A stretch of DNA of 64,000 bases from Escherichia phage nithesis. This document shows positions 47,626 to 53,617 of this stretch, one piece after another. The notes below the pieces were generated by a model. That model worked only from the letters and a program-made list of their open reading frames with translations. It searched no databases and was not told the origin of the DNA. Each line of letters opens with the position of its first letter. Positions within the stretch are counted from its first letter, which is position 1. Made by a program: the position numbers and the translations under genes. The DNA is taken from sequence record PV252060.1; one strand, written 5' to 3'.

Positions 47626-47655
47626 AAATAAAAAAGCCCACTGGTTAGGTGGGCT
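47626..47655 (-). terminator. rho-independent terminator
   Basis: Minus sense agcccac-ctaacca-gtgggct followed by tttttattt. Confidence 0.5.
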
Positions 47656-47730
47656 TGGGTTAGGAGATGGATAAGCAATGAGCTGGAAGCAACTTCCACA
47701 AGCACCACTATGTAATGATGCTTAGATTAG

Positions 47731-48027
47731 TTACTCTGCTTTACTGCTCGTTTGAGACACGTTGTATTGGTTACCACTACCAACGTTAACGATTGTAGTC
47801 TGAGACTGTCCTTTATTAGACAGTGACCAAATCAGTGCTACTACCCAGAATACTAGTGACCAGCCTAATACGATATTAAGCACACCAATGCCCCACTTAG
47901 AGGCATGGCCTCGTGCAAAAGCAATGATAGTAGGGATAAGGTATACAGCTAATATGAATAAGAAAACAAGGATTGCTGCTAAAGATTCCATGATGGTTCC
48001 TATGTGGGGTTGAGTTAGTTTCTTCAC
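47731..48027 (-). CDS. superinfection-immunity (T4 Imm-like) membrane protein
   Basis: AFARGHASKWGIGVLNIVLGWSLVFWVVALIWSLS resembles the Imm-family core; two transmembrane helices. Confidence 0.5.
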   Translation of the reverse strand: MKKLTQPHIGTIMESLAAILVFLFILAVYLIPTIIAFARGHASKWGIGVLNIVLGWSLVFWVVALIWSLSNKGQSQTTIVNVGSGNQYNVSQTSSKAE

Positions 48028-48064
48028 AAATAGCCCAACTATGTTGGGCTATTTAGGCAGCTAC

Positions 48065-48274
48065 TTACTCAGCATCTTTGCTTGTAGGAGCAAGAGCTTT
48101 TTTCAAGTAATTACGTACTGAACGATAAGTTTCTTTGGTTTCCATAGCACCATCATTTACGAATGTGATGCGTGCACAATCAGACAGTGGAACAGATTCC
48201 ACTGCAATCACGTTTGCAGCATTAATGGTTACACGTACATTTGAGGTTGCATTAGTTACTTGAAATACTGACAT
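48065..48274 (-). CDS. hypothetical protein
   Basis: 69-aa ORF. Confidence 0.3.
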   Translation of the reverse strand: MSVFQVTNATSNVRVTINAANVIAVESVPLSDCARITFVNDGAMETKETYRSVRNYLKKALAPTSKDAE

Positions 48275-48283
48275 GTTGTTTCC

Positions 48284-48790
48284 TTATTTACTGCTTCTTG
48301 CAGCTACTGGTTTGTTTTCCTGATTCTGATACTTGCCATTGTAATTAGCAGGTTCTTGAACCAGATGAAATAATACTTGAGCTATCCCAGCACCAGCCGG
48401 GATATGCAATTTCTTGCGACCATTATAGACCAGTTCAAGAGTCAAATACCCTTTCCATCCCGGTTCTATTACGGTATTGAACACAGATAATGCACGTCTT
48501 GCCCACGTAGACTTATCGTGAACGATGGCTACGCAGGATGGTGACATGTTGAACTTCTCAATTGCTGAAGCCAATGTGAACTTACCGAGATGGCGTGATA
48601 CTTGATCTCCATCAACGACCTTCACCATTGGAATCAACCCAAATAAGCGATAAAAGGTGATATCTTGTTTGATACGAATATCGTAACCAGCTTCACCTAA
48701 TCCATAGCTTACACCGTGTTCGGATACCTTATGGTCTGGAACATCCAGCAATTGGGATGAACGATAGAGAGAATTACCATTAACAACCAT
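48284..48790 (-). CDS. dCTP deaminase / dUTPase-fold protein
   Basis: IEPGWKGYLTLEL resembles the dCTP-deaminase/dUTPase motif; 168 aa. Confidence 0.5.
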   Translation of the reverse strand: MVVNGNSLYRSSQLLDVPDHKVSEHGVSYGLGEAGYDIRIKQDITFYRLFGLIPMVKVVDGDQVSRHLGKFTLASAIEKFNMSPSCVAIVHDKSTWARRALSVFNTVIEPGWKGYLTLELVYNGRKKLHIPAGAGIAQVLFHLVQEPANYNGKYQNQENKPVAARSSK

Positions 48791-49965
48791 TATTTCATTC
48801 CTTTAGGGATATGAACTACCTCCCCAAAAGGTACGGTAGCATTGGGATTATTCAGAACACACCAGATGATTGGAATATCAAATGGCAATTCTTCCATAGG
48901 GCGAACATACATATCAGAGAATATGATTGCAGCGGTTGGCTTATTCTTAATAATCCACTCGCGTACTGGTTCAAGGTTTGTACCACCACGACCGGTAATC
49001 TTAATCTCTTCAAAAGTATCTTCTTCAGTGATGTCTATTTCTTCCTGGATAATATCGTCGAAGGTAATTAGGGACATCTTCTTAGGATTGAACTGGCTCT
49101 TAACGTAAGCAACCTCTGAGTTAAAACGCAGAGAGTCAGCACTACTAATAGAACCAGATACATCCTCAAAGTAGGCTAAGTGACGTAGACGTCCTTCATC
49201 ATCTTCCAAGGAAGGTAGATAAATATCTGTGTAACGACGGTTAGGTCTGGCCCACGTATAGTGAGTGTCATCAATGTCGGTAAAGAAGTTCATGAGAACT
49301 TCCTGCCATGGAACCACTGGTTTAAGGAATTGGGTAATAACCTCTTCCATACGTCCAGCACCTTTACCGGGCATCTGTCCACCGGCCATTTTCTGGCTTT
49401 GCATTGAACGTACTACGTTGTTGACGACAGCACCCTGGGACTGCCCCGAAGTGGGGGATTTCATGTCGCCAGCAAGACCTGCTCCAGCACCCCCTGACGG
49501 CTTCTGCCTTTTCTGGGGGTTCTTCATCAGGTCATCGTAGATGTCTTCTTCGACCCATCCCTTATATTTATGGTCTTTGCAAATACCTTCATTGATACCA
49601 GTGAACTTGTAACCATCTTCTTCTAACTGAAGGTTAATGAAGTGGTCACATGCCTGGTTCCAGATTTCCGGGTCACGGCTTCCACGACGAATGTCATGTA
49701 GATATGCCACATGCCAGAGTTCGTGCATTAATACTGTTTCTCTTGCATCTGGACACATCCAGATAAAGAAATCAGGATTGAAATGGAGTTCTATCCCATC
49801 AGTACATGCAGTGGGACAATCCTCACGTTTCCATGAGAATTTAAGACTACAAAGTAATGAACCAAAGAACGCAGCAGACTTGCCTAGGAAAGCCTGAGCC
49901 TGAATACGGTCATACTCACGCATGAGTTGTTCATCACTAAGTGTGTGCTGAGGAAATTGGTTCAT
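48790..49965 (-). CDS. vWA-domain protein with HExxH metallopeptidase-like motif (partner of MoxR ATPase)
   Basis: HELWH motif; C-terminal region compatible with vWA fold; ATG at 49965 avoids overlap (table start 50046). Confidence 0.45.
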   Translation of the reverse strand: MNQFPQHTLSDEQLMREYDRIQAQAFLGKSAAFFGSLLCSLKFSWKREDCPTACTDGIELHFNPDFFIWMCPDARETVLMHELWHVAYLHDIRRGSRDPEIWNQACDHFINLQLEEDGYKFTGINEGICKDHKYKGWVEEDIYDDLMKNPQKRQKPSGGAGAGLAGDMKSPTSGQSQGAVVNNVVRSMQSQKMAGGQMPGKGAGRMEEVITQFLKPVVPWQEVLMNFFTDIDDTHYTWARPNRRYTDIYLPSLEDDEGRLRHLAYFEDVSGSISSADSLRFNSEVAYVKSQFNPKKMSLITFDDIIQEEIDITEEDTFEEIKITGRGGTNLEPVREWIIKNKPTAAIIFSDMYVRPMEELPFDIPIIWCVLNNPNATVPFGEVVHIPKGMK

Positions 49966-49969
49966 TGTT

Positions 49970-51022
49970 TTATCCGTGAATGTAGCGAGAGATATTAGCA
50001 GCAGCCTTACGCCATTCAGGAGTAGCCTGAAGATCTGGTAATGCATTGCCTACTGTACGGAAGTACAGAATCTTATGGGTGAACGTTCTAAAACGTTCAA
50101 TGTACTGAAGAACATCAACAAAGTTCTCTTCAGTAGTCTTGTTAGCCAAATGGTTAACAGTAGCCCAACACAGGTTGTTATCATCAGGTAGTGCACAGCC
50201 CAGAGGGTCTTTGACTACCTTCTCAATCGTAATTATACGATTGTATACCTGAGTAAACTGAACAAATTCTGTAGCCTTACCAGCAGTAACGTGTCCTGCA
50301 TAGTAGATAGAATCTTCATCAGGAAGAGCACCTTCTGGTAAGTTCTTGAGGTCTTTGTTAACAAAGTCCCAGGTACGAGGGCAACAGAACGTTTTGTTCT
50401 TATGTGCTGGGTCGAAGTCATGCAGATAACCAGGGTTAGCATGTAAGAATGCAACCAGACGTTCATCCCATTGCTGAGGAATCATTACGTCTTCAACAAA
50501 GATGTCGAAGTTAAGTTCCATTTCAAAGTGAACCACACGAGACTGCATTGCAGTACCTAATGGGTTAACAATGGCACGGTCAGTAGCTTTATTACCTGCA
50601 CAGACAATCATCACATTAGGATGAAGTTTTTTCTGACCAGTCATACGGTCTAGAATCAGTTTATATGCAGCAGCTACTACTTCTTTCTTAGCTGAGTTGA
50701 ACTCATCAAGGAATAAGAGCCAGCCATTATACCCTTCTGGTAATTCATCTCCCTCAATTGGGAATAAGTCAGCGAATGGAATAAACTCTGCACGGTCACC
50801 ATTACGGAATGGTAAACCAGACAGGTCTTCCGGGGCAGAAGTAGACAGACGATGGTCTATCAGTTTCATACCAAATTCTTCTGCAATAGAACGAATGATT
50901 GCAGATTTACCCATACCAGGTGATGAAGTCAGGAACGGTACGTTACCTGCTTTCAAAGCACGGATAATAAAGTTACGAGCTTGACGTGAATTACATACGG
51001 TCAAGGAGTCGATGCTTGTCAT
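49970..51022 (-). CDS. MoxR-like AAA+ ATPase
   Basis: Walker A SPGMGKSA; 350 aa; immediately upstream of vWA/HExxH gene. Confidence 0.55.
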   Translation of the reverse strand: MTSIDSLTVCNSRQARNFIIRALKAGNVPFLTSSPGMGKSAIIRSIAEEFGMKLIDHRLSTSAPEDLSGLPFRNGDRAEFIPFADLFPIEGDELPEGYNGWLLFLDEFNSAKKEVVAAAYKLILDRMTGQKKLHPNVMIVCAGNKATDRAIVNPLGTAMQSRVVHFEMELNFDIFVEDVMIPQQWDERLVAFLHANPGYLHDFDPAHKNKTFCCPRTWDFVNKDLKNLPEGALPDEDSIYYAGHVTAGKATEFVQFTQVYNRIITIEKVVKDPLGCALPDDNNLCWATVNHLANKTTEENFVDVLQYIERFRTFTHKILYFRTVGNALPDLQATPEWRKAAANISRYIHG

Positions 51023-51056
51023 TTACTTACTCTCCTAAAGCTAATGGAATTACTGA

Positions 51057-51386
51057 TTAAGATTTGGTGCAGGGATATGCCTTGTGTACTGAGTACACAA
51101 CAATTTGAGATGTATTCTTCATCTTGAGGATTGCAGAATCATAAATAACTACTTTGGCAATCTTAGGCAGAATGACAGAATACTTAATACCTTCAGGAAC
51201 ACAGTTATTTGTACTCTCGATGTAAGAGATCATACTGCCCATGAAGAATCCTTGTCCGAACGCATCACGAGTGTCATCCAGATAGGCCTGAGCACCTTCC
51301 AGAATTGGTTCTGGTTCAATTGCTTGTGCATTTGGAACCAAAGCTATCAGTGCAGCTACTGCAATACCTTTAAGTAAAGTTTTCAT
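51057..51386 (-). CDS. secreted or periplasmic protein
   Basis: N-terminal signal peptide MKTLLKGIAVAALIALVPNAQA. Confidence 0.4.
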   Translation of the reverse strand: MKTLLKGIAVAALIALVPNAQAIEPEPILEGAQAYLDDTRDAFGQGFFMGSMISYIESTNNCVPEGIKYSVILPKIAKVVIYDSAILKMKNTSQIVVYSVHKAYPCTKS

Positions 51387-51572
51387 TTAGTTACCTTTCA
51401 TTTCATTGAGTTTAAGTACACCGATAGGGGTTAATGACCACCCAAGACCAGTATTGAACTGCACTAAGCCCAGTTTCTTAAGAGACTGTGCGGTTTTGTT
51501 ATTACGGTTGCTGGTGGCAGAACCACCTTGAACCATACGAAGGAAAATAATCTGAGACTGGGTTAATTTCAC
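51387..51572 (-). CDS. hypothetical small protein
   Basis: 61-aa ORF. Confidence 0.3.
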   Translation of the reverse strand: MKLTQSQIIFLRMVQGGSATSNRNNKTAQSLKKLGLVQFNTGLGWSLTPIGVLKLNEMKGN

Positions 51573-51829
51573 TCTTCTTCCTCTTCTTCGGGTAATACGG
51601 ATAGATCAACCCCTAAATGTTTTAGGCGTTTCTCTAAGTCATCTATCTTCTTTTGATAAAATGCTACTAATTTAGGGTATATGCTTGCACGAGCTTGTAT
51701 TCCTAAATCCGTATCACAGAAGGTTACTTTAATCATGTGAGGAGCTTTCTTCAGACTAGCCAATTGCTGCCGGTTGTCGTTGTACTCTTCATACAATTTT
51801 TCAACTAAACGTAGGTTGTGAATATTCAT
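51569..51829 (-). CDS. hypothetical small protein
   Basis: 86-aa ORF, coupled overlap with neighbours. Confidence 0.3.
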   Translation of the reverse strand: MNIHNLRLVEKLYEEYNDNRQQLASLKKAPHMIKVTFCDTDLGIQARASIYPKLVAFYQKKIDDLEKRLKHLGVDLSVLPEEEEEE

Positions 51830-52047
51830 TTCTTCTCCGGTATGAACTGCATTATACAGTTTTGATTACGAGGGATATTCAATTCACATTCATACTTGAG
51901 GGTTTGTGTTACAGAGTTTGGGGTAGAACCAAAGTAGGTATTAGAAATAGCTACAAATCCTGCACCTATTAGACCACCTAGCAAGAATGAGAAAAATGCA
52001 ATCTCTTTATACATTTCCTGGCTCCAGATGTAGAAAACCCCAGTCAA
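51826..52047 (-). CDS. small membrane protein
   Basis: Hydrophobic segment FFSFLLGGLIGAGFVAI. Confidence 0.3.
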   Translation of the reverse strand: MTGVFYIWSQEMYKEIAFFSFLLGGLIGAGFVAISNTYFGSTPNSVTQTLKYECELNIPRNQNCIMQFIPEKK

Positions 52048-52075
52048 TGCTGGGGTTTATCTATCAGTTTATGCT

Positions 52076-52336
52076 TTATAGGCCATGTGGTCGGCATAGA
52101 CTACCCGAACCAAACGAACGGTGTCCAAGTCGGCCCAGGATTAGATTGCTTACTTCAGCAGCAGCACGGCTGAATGCTTTAAAGTCAAAGACTACGACAC
52201 CAAAGAGTGGGGCTGCAATAGCAGCTACCATGATTGGCGTCAGGTCAACCAGTGACATACCCAAGATTAAGTGAGCAGCGTAGGCAATAATACCCATTCC
52301 AAAACCACAACCATATCCAATAGCAATTTTACGCAT
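52076..52336 (-). CDS. small membrane protein
   Basis: Two hydrophobic segments; 86 aa. Confidence 0.3.
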   Translation of the reverse strand: MRKIAIGYGCGFGMGIIAYAAHLILGMSLVDLTPIMVAAIAAPLFGVVVFDFKAFSRAAAEVSNLILGRLGHRSFGSGSLCRPHGL

Positions 52337-52393
52337 AGTTACCTTCTTAGTTAGTAAGTTAATTAGTATTCATATAACAGACAAACAATAGTC

Positions 52394-52443
52394 AAAAAAA
52401 AAAAAAAAAAAAAAAAAAAAGACCTCCCTTCAATATGGAGGTC
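52394..52443 (-). terminator. hairpin followed by 27-nt homopolymeric T tract (A27 on plus strand)
   Basis: Stem gacctcc/ggaggtc with 9-nt loop at 52421-52443, then 27 consecutive A at 52394-52420. Confidence 0.5.
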
Positions 52444-52493
52444 AAACTTGAGGGTTTCATTTCAGGGTTTATAACCCCAAACAAAGAATACCC

Positions 52494-53327
52494 TTATTCT
52501 GCAACAGTAACAGGGATGGTTACATCGACAGTACCGTTGGTAACTACTACAGAAGTAGCATCACCAGCAGCTACTGGTTTAACTGTCAGGACATTGCCAG
52601 AAATGGTAGCTGTAGCACGTCCAGATTCTGGAGCAGTCTTGATAGACAAAGTACCGGAAGAGGAACCAACAGGCATAGCAACAATTGTTACAGTCTTGCC
52701 AGCAACAGTATCGGCAGCAACAGACAGAGCCAGTGAATCAGGAGTAGCTACCAGAGAGCTTGCTTCGTAGTAGCCTACAGCCAGCAGTGACTCATCTTCT
52801 ACAGTGGTTACATTAGCATCTGTAACAATCACTTTATAAGTACCAGCAGAAGCAGCTGTTACGTCATTAAGGGTCAATGTTGCAGTAGCAGCAGATGGGT
52901 TAGTACTGGAACTAATATCAGCGAATGCTGCACCAGCAGTATTTGCTTTGAATTGCCATTTATAAGTAAATGGTGCTTTACCACCTGCTACATCAACATG
53001 CCAGTTAATATCTTCACCTTCAATAGTGGAGACTACACGAGGCAGTTTGGTAGCAATGGTCAGTCGTGGAGTAGCTTTCATATCAATAGAGATAGACTGC
53101 ATATCCACGATGTTGTTAGGCCAGAAGCCTTCTTCAGCAGGGTTTTTAGCAGAGCGTTTATATAGCAGATCACGAACACTATGAAAGATAACTAAGCTAT
53201 CTGGGTAAGTGGCATCTGGGTGTACAAAAGTACCTACTTCTACGGAACCACCTGGGATAGAACCACTGGCATCCAGTACAGTTGCAACATTAGTGGTTTT
53301 GTTAAAACCTACTTTCAAAGTTGGCAT
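52494..53327 (-). CDS. Ig-like domain protein, capsid decoration candidate (N4 gp17-like by position)
   Basis: Thr/Val/Ser-rich beta-type repeats; directly downstream of RNAP II genes; ATG at 53327 with GAGGAAA ribosome-binding site. Confidence 0.45.
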   Translation of the reverse strand: MPTLKVGFNKTTNVATVLDASGSIPGGSVEVGTFVHPDATYPDSLVIFHSVRDLLYKRSAKNPAEEGFWPNNIVDMQSISIDMKATPRLTIATKLPRVVSTIEGEDINWHVDVAGGKAPFTYKWQFKANTAGAAFADISSSTNPSAATATLTLNDVTAASAGTYKVIVTDANVTTVEDESLLAVGYYEASSLVATPDSLALSVAADTVAGKTVTIVAMPVGSSSGTLSIKTAPESGRATATISGNVLTVKPVAAGDATSVVVTNGTVDVTIPVTVAE

Positions 53328-53401
53328 ATCAATTTCCTCATAAGTAAATAGCAGGATTAGTATACATGACATGTAAAAAAATAAACCCTCCGTTAAGAGG
53401 G

Positions 53402-53617
53402 TTAGTTGTTTACACAGTAGATAGCAAAAGCTATCCATCCTGCCATTACAAAGCAGCCAAGTGAGTATGCTCCATAGTAGCAGTAAGCAAACTTAGACTT
53501 GTGGGCATGAACTATTGTAGACAGAACCAGTACAGATAAAACTATCAGTATTAGCTGAAAGATTACTTCAAAAGGGATTAGCATAGTTTTTACCTCCAAG
53601 CAAAAAATAGGCCTCAC
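53402..53617 (-). CDS. small membrane protein
   Basis: Two hydrophobic helices; 71 aa. Confidence 0.3.
   Translation of the reverse strand: MRPIFCLEVKTMLIPFEVIFQLILIVLSVLVLSTIVHAHKSKFAYCYYGAYSLGCFVMAGWIAFAIYCVNN

Follow-up and report, generated by a model that had tools for sequence, protein, structure and literature searches.

Why a lytic phage should carry a MoxR-type AAA+ ATPase together with a protein that combines an HExxH motif and a vWA domain is the question raised by two adjacent genes of Escherichia phage nithesis (PV252060.1). The window analysed here is a stretch of 64,000 nucleotides of this genome. The pair is already present in the literature as gp24/gp25 of phage N4, an identification that was missing from a sequence-only reading of the window. 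N4-like phages have a published set of 14 core genes to which both genes belong, and in N4 both are described as middle transcripts (PMC4193335, PMC2784036). That reading called the function in a lytic phage unclear, which is still correct: we found neither a functional study of N4 gp24 or gp25 nor any experiment on them in the literature that could be searched, and the literature searched, CRISPRi-ART included, yielded no functional data for DUF2201, DUF3150 or MoxR in phages. N4's own record for the two genes gives only similarity to a Streptomyces coelicolor protein pair, without a function. Here we propose, with moderate confidence, that gp24 and gp25 constitute a two-component machine of the MoxR/vWA type that remodels, and probably cleaves, a target bound at the MIDAS of gp25.

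The source phage is a G7C/IME11-like Gamaleyavirus, within the N4-like family Schitoviridae, and the gene-pair region shows 92-94% nucleotide identity to Gamaleyaviruses. In this Gamaleyavirus the two genes are orthologous to N4 gp24 (the ATPase, annotated in N4 as putative AAA ATPase) and gp25 (the vWA protein, annotated as vWFA superfamily), at about 61% amino-acid identity: 60.8% between the gp25 proteins and 61% between the nithesis ATPase and N4-group ATPases. Both ORFs were confirmed where the sequence-only reading had placed them, adjacent and co-oriented on the minus strand, as were the SPGMGKSA and HELWH motifs it had named. The features of the locus, in window positions, are the following.

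47634 to 53403, minus strand: stretch bounded by terminator-like hairpins (53403-53384 and 47656-47634)
51036 to 51031, minus strand: Shine-Dalgarno AGGAGA, 8 nt 5' of the ATPase ATG, read from the sequence
51022 to 49970, minus strand: MoxR-like AAA+ ATPase, 350 aa, N4 gp24 orthologue (ORF, Pfam, PHROG, model fold)
50923 to 50900, minus strand: Walker A (P-loop) SPGMGKSA, residues 34-41, with G38, K39 and S40 invariant in the alignment
50810 to 50857, minus strand: conserved DHRLSTSAPEDLSGLP segment in the beta2-beta3 interval, candidate helix-2-insert/pore-loop region
50699 to 50719, minus strand: Walker B LLFLDEF (D106, E107), from the alignment
50537 to 50602, minus strand: from CAGN (N144, putative sensor 1) to AMQSR (R162, putative arginine finger)
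50369 to 50383, minus strand: CPRTW motif with invariant R216, candidate sensor 2 in the lid
49965 to 48790, minus strand: 391-aa protein with N-terminal DUF2201_N HExxH (zincin-like) domain and C-terminal MIDAS vWA domain, N4 gp25 orthologue
49725 to 49711, minus strand: HELWH, residues 81-85, HExxH putative metal-binding/catalytic motif, from the alignment
49633 to 49662, minus strand: WNQACDHFIN helix with N103, A105, D107 and N111 invariant in the alignment
49231 to 49248, minus strand: RPNRRY motif, R243/R244 invariant in the alignment, just N-terminal to the vWA domain, at low model confidence
48910 to 49164, minus strand: a further feature inside the gp25 gene

No further terminator-like hairpin was found on the minus strand between the two that bound the stretch. 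Its gene content comprises a Hoc-like decoration gene, small ORFs, the ATPase, the vWA protein and dCTP deaminase, as well as a 69-aa ORF and a superinfection-immunity gene, and it corresponds to the N4 middle-gene region. Synteny with N4 extends over RNAPII subunits, decoration protein, small genes, gp24, gp25, dCTP deaminase, thymidylate synthase and rIIA/B, with a ThyX gene near the pair in the nithesis window and in N4 alike; the two loci differ only by sequence divergence and a slightly tighter gene junction in nithesis. The longest ORF of the second gene (50046 to 48790, 418 aa) reaches 77 nt into the ATPase gene. Judging from the sequence, its true start is likely the ATG at 49965, 4 nt past the ATPase stop codon, which gives 391 aa, the length annotated for IME11_48. 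The start of the dCTP deaminase gene in turn overlaps the vWA-gene stop as TAATG.

The assignment of gp24 to the MoxR-type AAA+ proteins was supported by domain and structure searches (Pfam, Foldseek), which also supported the vWA fold of its partner. Pfam AAA (PF00004) matched the ATPase with 27 bits against a cut-off of 21.2, and PHROG 1297 'ATPase' matched it with an E-value of 1e-133. Its AlphaFold model (pLDDT 85.6, with residues 64-81 below 50) has NorQ and CbbQ as nearest folds: Foldseek ranks 1-7 and later ranks include NorQD/NorQ (9qhg, 9qh4, 9qhd), CbbQ2 (6l1q) and cso-CbbQ (5c3c), interleaved with dynein and midasin, at E-values of 4e-7 to 2e-5 and TM-scores normalised to the target of 0.58-0.65. 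Sequence and profile searches of the PDB returned only midasin AAA domains, weakly (E 2.7e-4), and NCBIfam gave no match for either protein. The family amounts to 2,689 clusters at E<=1e-30 in a representative library, the closest 150 of which were listed. Among 39 diverse family members AAA_5 was matched by 29, AAA_3 by 12 and bpMoxR by four (E<=0.01). The nithesis ATPase itself falls short of the Pfam gathering thresholds both for AAA_5, with 17 bits where 22 are needed, and for bpMoxR (14.2 vs 27 bits), and has no Pfam match to AAA_3; it therefore represents a divergent MoxR-like branch rather than a canonical MoxR. The records of the homologues of Synechocystis plasmid pSYSA and cyanophage MinM2 say 'MoxR family ATPase'.

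The AAA+ motifs of the ATPase are intact and conserved in divergent homologues. Of 39 such homologues every one has E107 and 90% or more have K39, and N144, R162 and R216 are invariant; by their position in alignment and model these three would act as sensor 1, arginine finger and sensor 2, respectively. Two homologues contain inteins within these motifs, the metagenomic P0373 exactly at Walker A and P0304 at Walker B, as would fit motifs of an active site that is strongly constrained. Between strands 52-58 and 100-106 lies a conserved segment of about 40 residues, part of which (64-81) is modelled with low confidence. It contains the DHRLSTSAPEDLSGLP segment, in which D56, H57, R58, T61, S62, P64, D66, G69 and P71 are invariant and which aligns with the equivalent part of midasin AAA domains. 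The model furthermore has a short strand (131-133) preceding strand 137-144. Compared with NorQ, CbbQ and RavA, the nithesis ATPase has an extra conserved C-terminal helical region (residues ~220-350).

The partner protein, gp25, combines two domains. DUF2201_N (PF13203) matched with an E-value of 5.3e-57 (193.9 bits against a cut-off of 23.2) and the VWA-like DUF2201 with 2.2e-34 (Pfam), in agreement with the vWA-like C-terminus that had been read from the letters. Like the PF00004 and PHROG 1297 matches of gp24, these scores lie well outside chance expectation. H81, E82 and H85 of the HExxH motif are invariant even in the Asteriusvirus, Vequintavirus, cyanophage and archaeal-MAG homologues. 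D107 and E140 (49551-49537) are both invariant among gp25 homologues; on the basis of the alignment D107 is the candidate third zinc ligand, with E140 as alternative. DUF2201_N is regarded as a putative zincin metallopeptidase domain that probably has peptidase activity. The vWA domain has a Rossmann-like fold and is minimal, about 125 aa, and a finger of the NorD kind was not recognised in it. Its MIDAS residues D268, S270, S272, T329 and D351 are invariant in 30 N4-like and ten further homologues, four of which are very distant. Model confidence is low at residues 158-164 and 214-256; the RPNRRY motif may contact the ATPase. PDB sequence and profile searches with gp25 gave nothing significant and no solved relative. 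The vWA domain of CLCA1 is among its top Foldseek matches, and the CLCA family likewise has an HExxH protease and a MIDAS vWA domain in a single polypeptide. CLCA proteins are, however, eukaryotic, secreted and self-cleaving and have no AAA+ partner, which makes them an analogy to gp25 only, with no sequence relationship shown.

The two genes travel together. Eight genome loci were retrieved; in the seven of sufficient length the ATPase gene lies directly upstream of the vWA gene, and the eighth is a fragment of 357 bp. A scan of genome contigs yielded mainly N4-like phage contigs and few independent loci of cellular origin, and cellular and plasmid context was obtained from PLSDB. The pair also occurs in jumbo phages, Vequintaviruses and one cyanophage, and is adjacent or nearby in Asteriusvirus A4, MinM2, pMBR02, pRK1-1, pREL1, pSYSA and a Rhodovastum plasmid. 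In some phages homing endonucleases are inserted beside or inside these genes. According to PLSDB 103 plasmids carry the pair, 30 of which are conjugative and 29 mobilizable. The carriers include plasmids of Burkholderia, Cupriavidus, Rhodococcus, Rhodovastum and Synechocystis, often with a DUF3150-like third gene. Homology between the plasmid-cassette ATPase and gp24 spans the whole protein (pMBR02, E 2e-33; pSYSA, hhalign probability 99.9%), and the partner in the cassette likewise consists of DUF2201_N and DUF2201. In the proteobacterial plasmids examined, pMBR02, pRK1-1 and the Rhodovastum plasmid, and in cyanophage MinM2 the third gene encodes about 300 aa; tblastn found no copy of it in the nithesis window.

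NorQ/NorD suggest how such a pair could work: the vWA protein inserts a finger into the pore of the ATPase and takes hold of the target at its MIDAS, and the ATPase acts on a linker of NorD and remodels it (PMC9976466, PMC13036017). By analogy with this and other MoxR/vWA pairs, gp24 would form a hexameric, ATP-hydrolysing AAA+ ring on which a single gp25 docks via its small vWA domain. The MIDAS metal would then capture an acidic residue on the target protein, and ATP-driven movement would pass via the vWA domain and the linker, such that the target is remodelled. Remodelling would position or activate the HExxH zincin-like domain, with cleavage of the target or its partner as the probable outcome. 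The analogy has its limits: where NorQ/NorD, CbbQ/CbbO and RavA/ViaA have a target-specific docking domain, gp25 has the zincin-like N-terminal domain, and its minimal vWA domain is unlike those of these chaperone pairs. In addition, NorQ/NorD-type pairs adjoin their client metalloenzyme whereas gp24/gp25 is a module of mobile elements. Another counterpart is the MoxR/metallopeptidase-vWA pair that Iyer et al. (2021) described from jumbo phages of group 2.2, which consists of homologous proteins with the same architecture. Between Asteriusvirus A4 and nithesis the ATPases match with an E-value of 2e-25 and the vWA proteins share ~26% identity, with HExxH and MIDAS conserved. The jumbo-phage ATPase has large insertions (441 aa) and, unlike the jumbo phages, nithesis is a 72-kb podovirus with the pair in a middle-gene operon that contains nucleotide-metabolism genes. 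The architecture of the pair has been described before and public records already annotate both genes; at the level of sequence the finding is unremarkable.

Because the cassette occurs on plasmids, which have no virions, a target common to mobile elements, such as a host or DNA-bound protein, is weakly favoured over a virion protein. A possible rival reading gives the pair a role in mobile-element establishment or counter-defence, in which the MIDAS recognises a host protein involved in defence or stress, or bound to DNA, that the ATPase-driven zincin removes or cleaves, to the benefit of phages and incoming plasmids alike. Lytic phages of several families share the pair with the 103 plasmids, and some contexts point the same way: in pMBR02 type IV secretion genes follow immediately downstream of it, the Rhodovastum copy has genes for toprim, zeta-toxin and ParB nearby, and in Vequintavirus I29 both genes are among many small genes near the record start. 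Plasmid contexts are nevertheless varied and not clearly leading-region, and the N4-like gp24/gp25 are middle rather than early genes (PMC4193335). MoxR-vWA pairs with peptidase effectors are known from conflict systems (PMC7159879), where the vWA protein can carry peptidase effectors, occasionally a metallopeptidase (Kaur et al. 2020). These systems reside in cellular defence islands and have a VMAP/beta-propeller third component, whereas gp24/gp25 is phage-borne, has no such component and reaches 14 of the 27 bits needed for bpMoxR. The neighbours of gp25 are dCTP deaminase and small ORFs, and the sole bpX6 trace, in the 69-aa ORF, is sub-threshold. The PADLOC defence models gave noise-level matches only (DolB, IetA), and identity of the pair with a known defence system was rejected.

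Alternatively, the pair could be a virion-assembly chaperone and protease that folds, assembles or trims structural or ejection proteins, which we regard as rather doubtful for nithesis. Iyer et al. proposed a virion role for the homologous group 2.2 jumbo-phage pair, taking as their analogue the MoxR/vWA pair that Acidianus two-tailed virus requires to develop its tails (PMC7824862). Genes annotated as structural lie on either side of the pair in Asteriusvirus A4, in nithesis a Hoc-like decoration gene lies within the same terminator-bounded stretch, and roseophages have a second structural module beside their gp24/gp25 homologues (PMC4193335). A canonical prohead protease was not seen among ten late-region proteins. 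Against this stand the ATPase and DUF2201 cassettes of virion-less plasmids, among them the non-mobilizable pSYSA and the linear pREL1, and the absence of gp24/gp25 from the listed N4-like virion proteins (PMC4193335). Virion-protein processing is not mentioned in the Schitoviridae structural papers checked, nor did we find processing of virion or host proteins reported for N4-like infections.

It is unlikely that the pair is a non-proteolytic chaperone for assembly or cofactor insertion comparable to NorQD, CbbQO or the chelatases, with a replication or nucleotide enzyme as client and an HExxH domain that serves metal binding or docking only. The characterised MoxR/vWA pairs do mostly mature metalloenzymes, and the pair, which has dCTP deaminase as a translationally linked neighbour, lies near ThyX in nithesis as well as in N4, while Asteriusvirus A4 has a thymidylate synthase gene four genes downstream. 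Yet the HExxH glutamate is invariant in very distant homologues, which argues for catalysis beyond metal binding, and the plasmid cassettes have no nucleotide-metabolism neighbours. Very improbable is, finally, that the database labels are correct and the pair comprises a clamp-loader-like replication ATPase and an HNH endonuclease, since the matches of the ATPase to PHROG 168 'clamp loader' (E 1.5e-5) and to clamp-loader structures in the Foldseek list (E about 5e-6) are weaker than those to its best structural and Pfam neighbours, MoxR, AAA_5 and AAA_3. As for gp25, called 'HNH endonuclease' by PHROG 1314 and many RefSeq records, Pfam recognises DUF2201_N and a vWA-like domain in it, which bear the HExxH and MIDAS motifs, and its sub-fragments did not match any HNH family at E<=10; the label probably stems from the homing endonucleases inserted at these genes in some phages.

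For the biology of N4-like phages the pair, in the favoured reading a MoxR/vWA-type machine acting on a MIDAS-bound target, matters in several ways. N4 is a classic model phage. The pair is among only 14 genes common to all N4-like phages, and it is the sole obvious ATP-dependent remodelling or protease module seen in the nithesis genome. We tentatively suggest, as a doubtful but specific possibility, that gp24/gp25 is the phage form of a mobile-element cassette: an ATP-powered, MIDAS-targeted protease that clears a host or DNA-bound protein for the establishment of foreign DNA. If true, such a role would differ from the virion-assembly role proposed so far. Knowing what the pair acts on would close a gap in the picture of how N4 infects its host, with capsid assembly or scaffolding and host takeover as candidate processes, and would assign a role to a cassette that hundreds of phages and roughly a hundred plasmids carry.

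The adjacent, co-oriented genes that the sequence-only reading had picked out by their SPGMGKSA and HELWH motifs are borne out by the positions of the ORFs and motifs:

51022-49970, minus strand: ATPase ORF, 350 aa, with an AGGAGA ribosome-binding site 8 nt upstream
ATPase residues 34-41, minus strand: SPGMGKSA, read in the sequence
50046-48790, minus strand: longest form of the partner ORF, 418 aa, which would share 77 nt with the ATPase gene
ATG at 49965, minus strand: chosen start of the partner ORF, 391 aa, 4 nt past the ATPase stop codon
Partner residues 81-85 (391-aa numbering), minus strand: HELWH, read in the sequence
53403-53384 and 47656-47634, minus strand: terminator-like hairpins, with no others on this strand between the two

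The gene pair is therefore real as noted, but the likely partner start was taken to be 49965 rather than 50046, in view of the spacing to the ATPase stop codon and the 391-aa product annotated in IME11. The partner stop codon overlaps the dCTP deaminase start (TAATG). The 4-kb region around the pair shows 92-94% nucleotide identity to Gamaleyavirus Escherichia phages (G7C, IME11, St11Ph5, Bp4 and others), a genus of the N4-like family Schitoviridae, and the pair and its neighbours all lie on the minus strand. In IME11, an annotated relative, the RNAPII subunits and a Hoc-like decoration protein come first; small ORFs, the ATPase, the VWA-like protein and dCTP deaminase follow, and after further small ORFs come ThyX, rIIA, rIIB and the helicase. 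Sigma-70-like promoter matches are depleted between 47500 and 53700 (4 observed versus 14.5 +/- 4.3 in shuffles), which fits a phage with its own RNA polymerase.

Various neighbours on the same strand were also inspected. For the Hoc-like Ig-domain decoration gene, the longest ORF (52494-53438) contains the strong terminator-like hairpin 53403-53384 inside its 5' extension, hence the true start of the gene is probably further downstream; the IME11 homologue has 277 aa. Just 5' of the ATPase gene, a 109-aa protein (51057-51386) has an N-terminal signal-peptide-like sequence and is labelled Tai4 (type VI amidase immunity) in some related phage records; a Pfam search with it gave no match. Two genes past the vWA gene, at the position of N4 gp27, a 69-aa ORF (48065-48274) shows a sub-threshold Pfam match to bpX6 (E 0.0046, 17 bits versus a cut-off of 27). 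This domain belongs to MoxR-vWA-beta-propeller ternary systems, which makes its context curious; the match is probably due to chance. The terminator-bounded stretch that holds the pair ends with a small membrane protein (47731-48027) assigned by Pfam to the superinfection-immunity family (Imm_superinfect, E 9e-17).

Pfam searches recovered AAA in the ATPase and both DUF2201_N ("putative metallopeptidase domain", 5e-57) and DUF2201 ("VWA-like domain", 2e-34) in the partner, in agreement with the proposed HELWH protein with a vWA-like C-terminus. Among 30 partner homologues H81, E82, H85, R93, N103, A105, D107, N111, E140, R243 and R244 are invariant from the N-terminal part to the linker, as are D268, S270, G271, S272, G328, T329 and D351 in the C-terminal part, and this holds upon addition of Asteriusvirus, Vequintavirus, cyanophage MinM2 and an archaeal-MAG contig. 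The set covers the complete HExxH and the complete MIDAS motif (DxSxS...T...D); judging from the alignment, D107 and E140, both invariant, are candidate third ligands. In the structural model (pLDDT 78), a helical domain at the N-terminus is joined through a low-confidence linker to a small C-terminal domain of alpha/beta type.

The label "HNH endonuclease", given to this family as PHROG 1314 and repeated in many RefSeq phage records, was rejected since the partner has no detectable HNH domain; it looks like a propagated mis-annotation of a DUF2201_N/vWA family. In several N4-like phages an inserted HNH homing endonuclease splits the ATPase gene in two, and this may be the source of the wrong label on the neighbouring family:

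Split ATPase genes: phages U1G, PW8, Bp4, Pollock and VCO139; comparison locus L006, 4149-5981, in which the two pieces lie about 860 nt apart

The ATPase matches Pfam AAA (PF00004) over threshold, AAA_5 and bpMoxR under threshold, and PHROG 1297 ("ATPase", 1e-133), with no match in NCBIfam. Residues invariant among 30 N4-like homologues include G38-K39-S40, D106-E107, N144, R162 and R216, and the DHRLSTSAPEDLSGLP segment between strands beta2 and beta3 is strongly conserved; E107, N144, R162 and R216 are still invariant in 39 more divergent homologues (33-49% identity). Its AlphaFold model (pLDDT 85.6, pTM 0.83, low confidence at residues 64-81) combines the alpha/beta core of AAA+ proteins with a long helical region at the C-terminus. 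Foldseek against PDB ranks NorQ/NorQD, CbbQ2 and cso-CbbQ, all MoxR-family, and dynein and midasin AAA modules on top, followed by clamp loaders and Lon; by sequence, midasin is the only PDB match. Of the 39 homologues, 29 match AAA_5, 12 match AAA_3, the canonical MoxR domain, and four match bpMoxR. The Synechocystis pSYSA homologue (RefSeq "MoxR family ATPase") aligns to the N4-like profile with an hhalign probability of 99.9%. We conclude that it is a divergent MoxR-like AAA+ ATPase: fold neighbours and homologue profiles sustain the MoxR-type assignment, but by profile score it is no canonical member. The family is large: when 1.84 billion representative proteins were searched with a profile, 2,689 clusters were retrieved at E<=1e-30. 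Two metagenomic homologues (P0304 and P0373) carry intein-like insertions with LAGLIDADG/Hom_end domains, one within Walker B (GWFLF/C...GN/CDELN, slashes at the boundaries), the other within Walker A (GIGK/A...HN/SSLAQ), as expected of essential active-site motifs.

The pair, real and correctly interpreted by the sequence-only reading, had been known before as N4 gp24/gp25, and descriptions of its architecture exist too. N4 gp25 is 60.8% identical to the partner (tblastn), and the N4 record has gp24, gp25 and dCTP deaminase in the order of the window, annotated "similar to S. coel. protein 1/2". Published comparative genomics counts gp24 (unknown) and gp25 (vWFA domain) in the 14-gene core of N4-like phages and gives both as middle transcripts of N4 (PMC4193335; also PMC2784036; PMC10783043); the searchable literature yielded no experimental work on their function. 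Homology to the Asteriusvirus A4 pair, of the jumbo-phage type described by Iyer et al. 2021, was confirmed (ATPase E 2e-25). The phage collection holds 700 records with a gp25 and 812 with a gp24 relative, including Schitoviridae, Vequintavirinae, Asteriusvirus, RaK2-like jumbo phages, Campylobacter phages and a cyanophage. In each of the seven genome-collection loci that extend far enough, the vWA gene directly follows the ATPase gene; in Vequintavirus I29 a distance of 3.7 kb separates the two, which are divergently oriented. Acinetobacter baumannii "plasmid" pRBH2-3 (75 kb, circular) encodes an N4-like RNA polymerase, the ATPase and the vWA protein, and is apparently the genome of an N4-like phage, in a carrier state or deposited under the wrong label. 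Two very long bacterial contigs, from a Roseococcus MAG (297 kb) and a Mesorhizobium yinganensis isolate (727 kb), contain N4-like blocks with ATPase, vWA, dcd and ThyX, the former additionally with RNAP1/2 and part of the helicase; these would fit N4-like proviruses, as have been reported (PMC10654107), or an assembly chimera.

Among MoxR/vWA pairs, NorQ/NorD has been studied best: a single vWA protein is seated on the NorQ hexamer and inserts a finger into its pore, acidic client residues are bound at the MIDAS site, and a linker in NorD is remodelled through ATP hydrolysis (PMC9976466, PMC13036017). By analogy, gp24 would be the motor ring to which the gp25 vWA domain couples; a target would be captured at the MIDAS site and acted upon by the N-terminal HExxH domain, most likely a peptidase, on its partly disordered linker. 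Ring formation, gp24-gp25 contact and proteolysis are what we infer from this analogy; that the catalytic Glu and every MIDAS residue stay invariant between very distant homologues supports real catalysis and real metal-dependent binding.

Relatives of gp25 were found on 103 PLSDB plasmids (30 conjugative, 29 mobilizable); 28 of these are from Rhodococcus and 27 from Burkholderia, with Paraburkholderia, Cupriavidus, Synechocystis and others next. The module has two genes in Rhodococcus pREL1 and Synechocystis pSYSA, while pMBR02 of Burkholderia, pRK1-1 of Cupriavidus and a Rhodovastum plasmid encode a further protein, about 300 aa long, between the ATPase and the VWA-like protein:

Three-gene modules: L013 4888-8158, L014 4946-8176, L018 4928-8152 and L012 1629-6086, comparison loci from Burkholderia, Rhodovastum and Cupriavidus plasmids and cyanophage MinM2

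The ATPase of pMBR02 aligns with the phage enzyme along its entire length (E 2e-33). Homology of the pMBR02 and Rhodovastum middle proteins to the DUF3150 protein encoded between MoxR and VWA in MinM2 was confirmed, and the middle gene of pRK1-1 carries a DUF3150 domain annotation in its record. MinM2 has other small genes scattered within the module, whereas in the plasmids the middle gene lies directly between the other two; a tblastn search of the window gave no DUF3150-like gene. The pMBR02 cassette abuts type IV secretion genes directly downstream, and the Rhodovastum cassette is near toprim, zeta-toxin and ParB genes.

Since plasmids make no virions, their cassettes argue for a possible need common to mobile elements, such as the removal or cleavage of a host protein or of one bound to DNA, which we tentatively rate slightly above virion assembly. 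The latter, proposed in print before, draws some support from context: in Asteriusvirus the pair is flanked by structural genes, its operon in the window includes a decoration gene, ten late proteins examined include no canonical prohead protease, and N4 has no identified scaffolding protein. The pair could also be a chaperone that inserts cofactors into nucleotide-metabolism enzymes, but the conserved catalytic Glu and the settings on plasmids make this less likely. The link of the pair to plasmid cassettes with a DUF3150-like third gene was not found in the searchable literature; it is the one addition of this analysis, and it bears on function.
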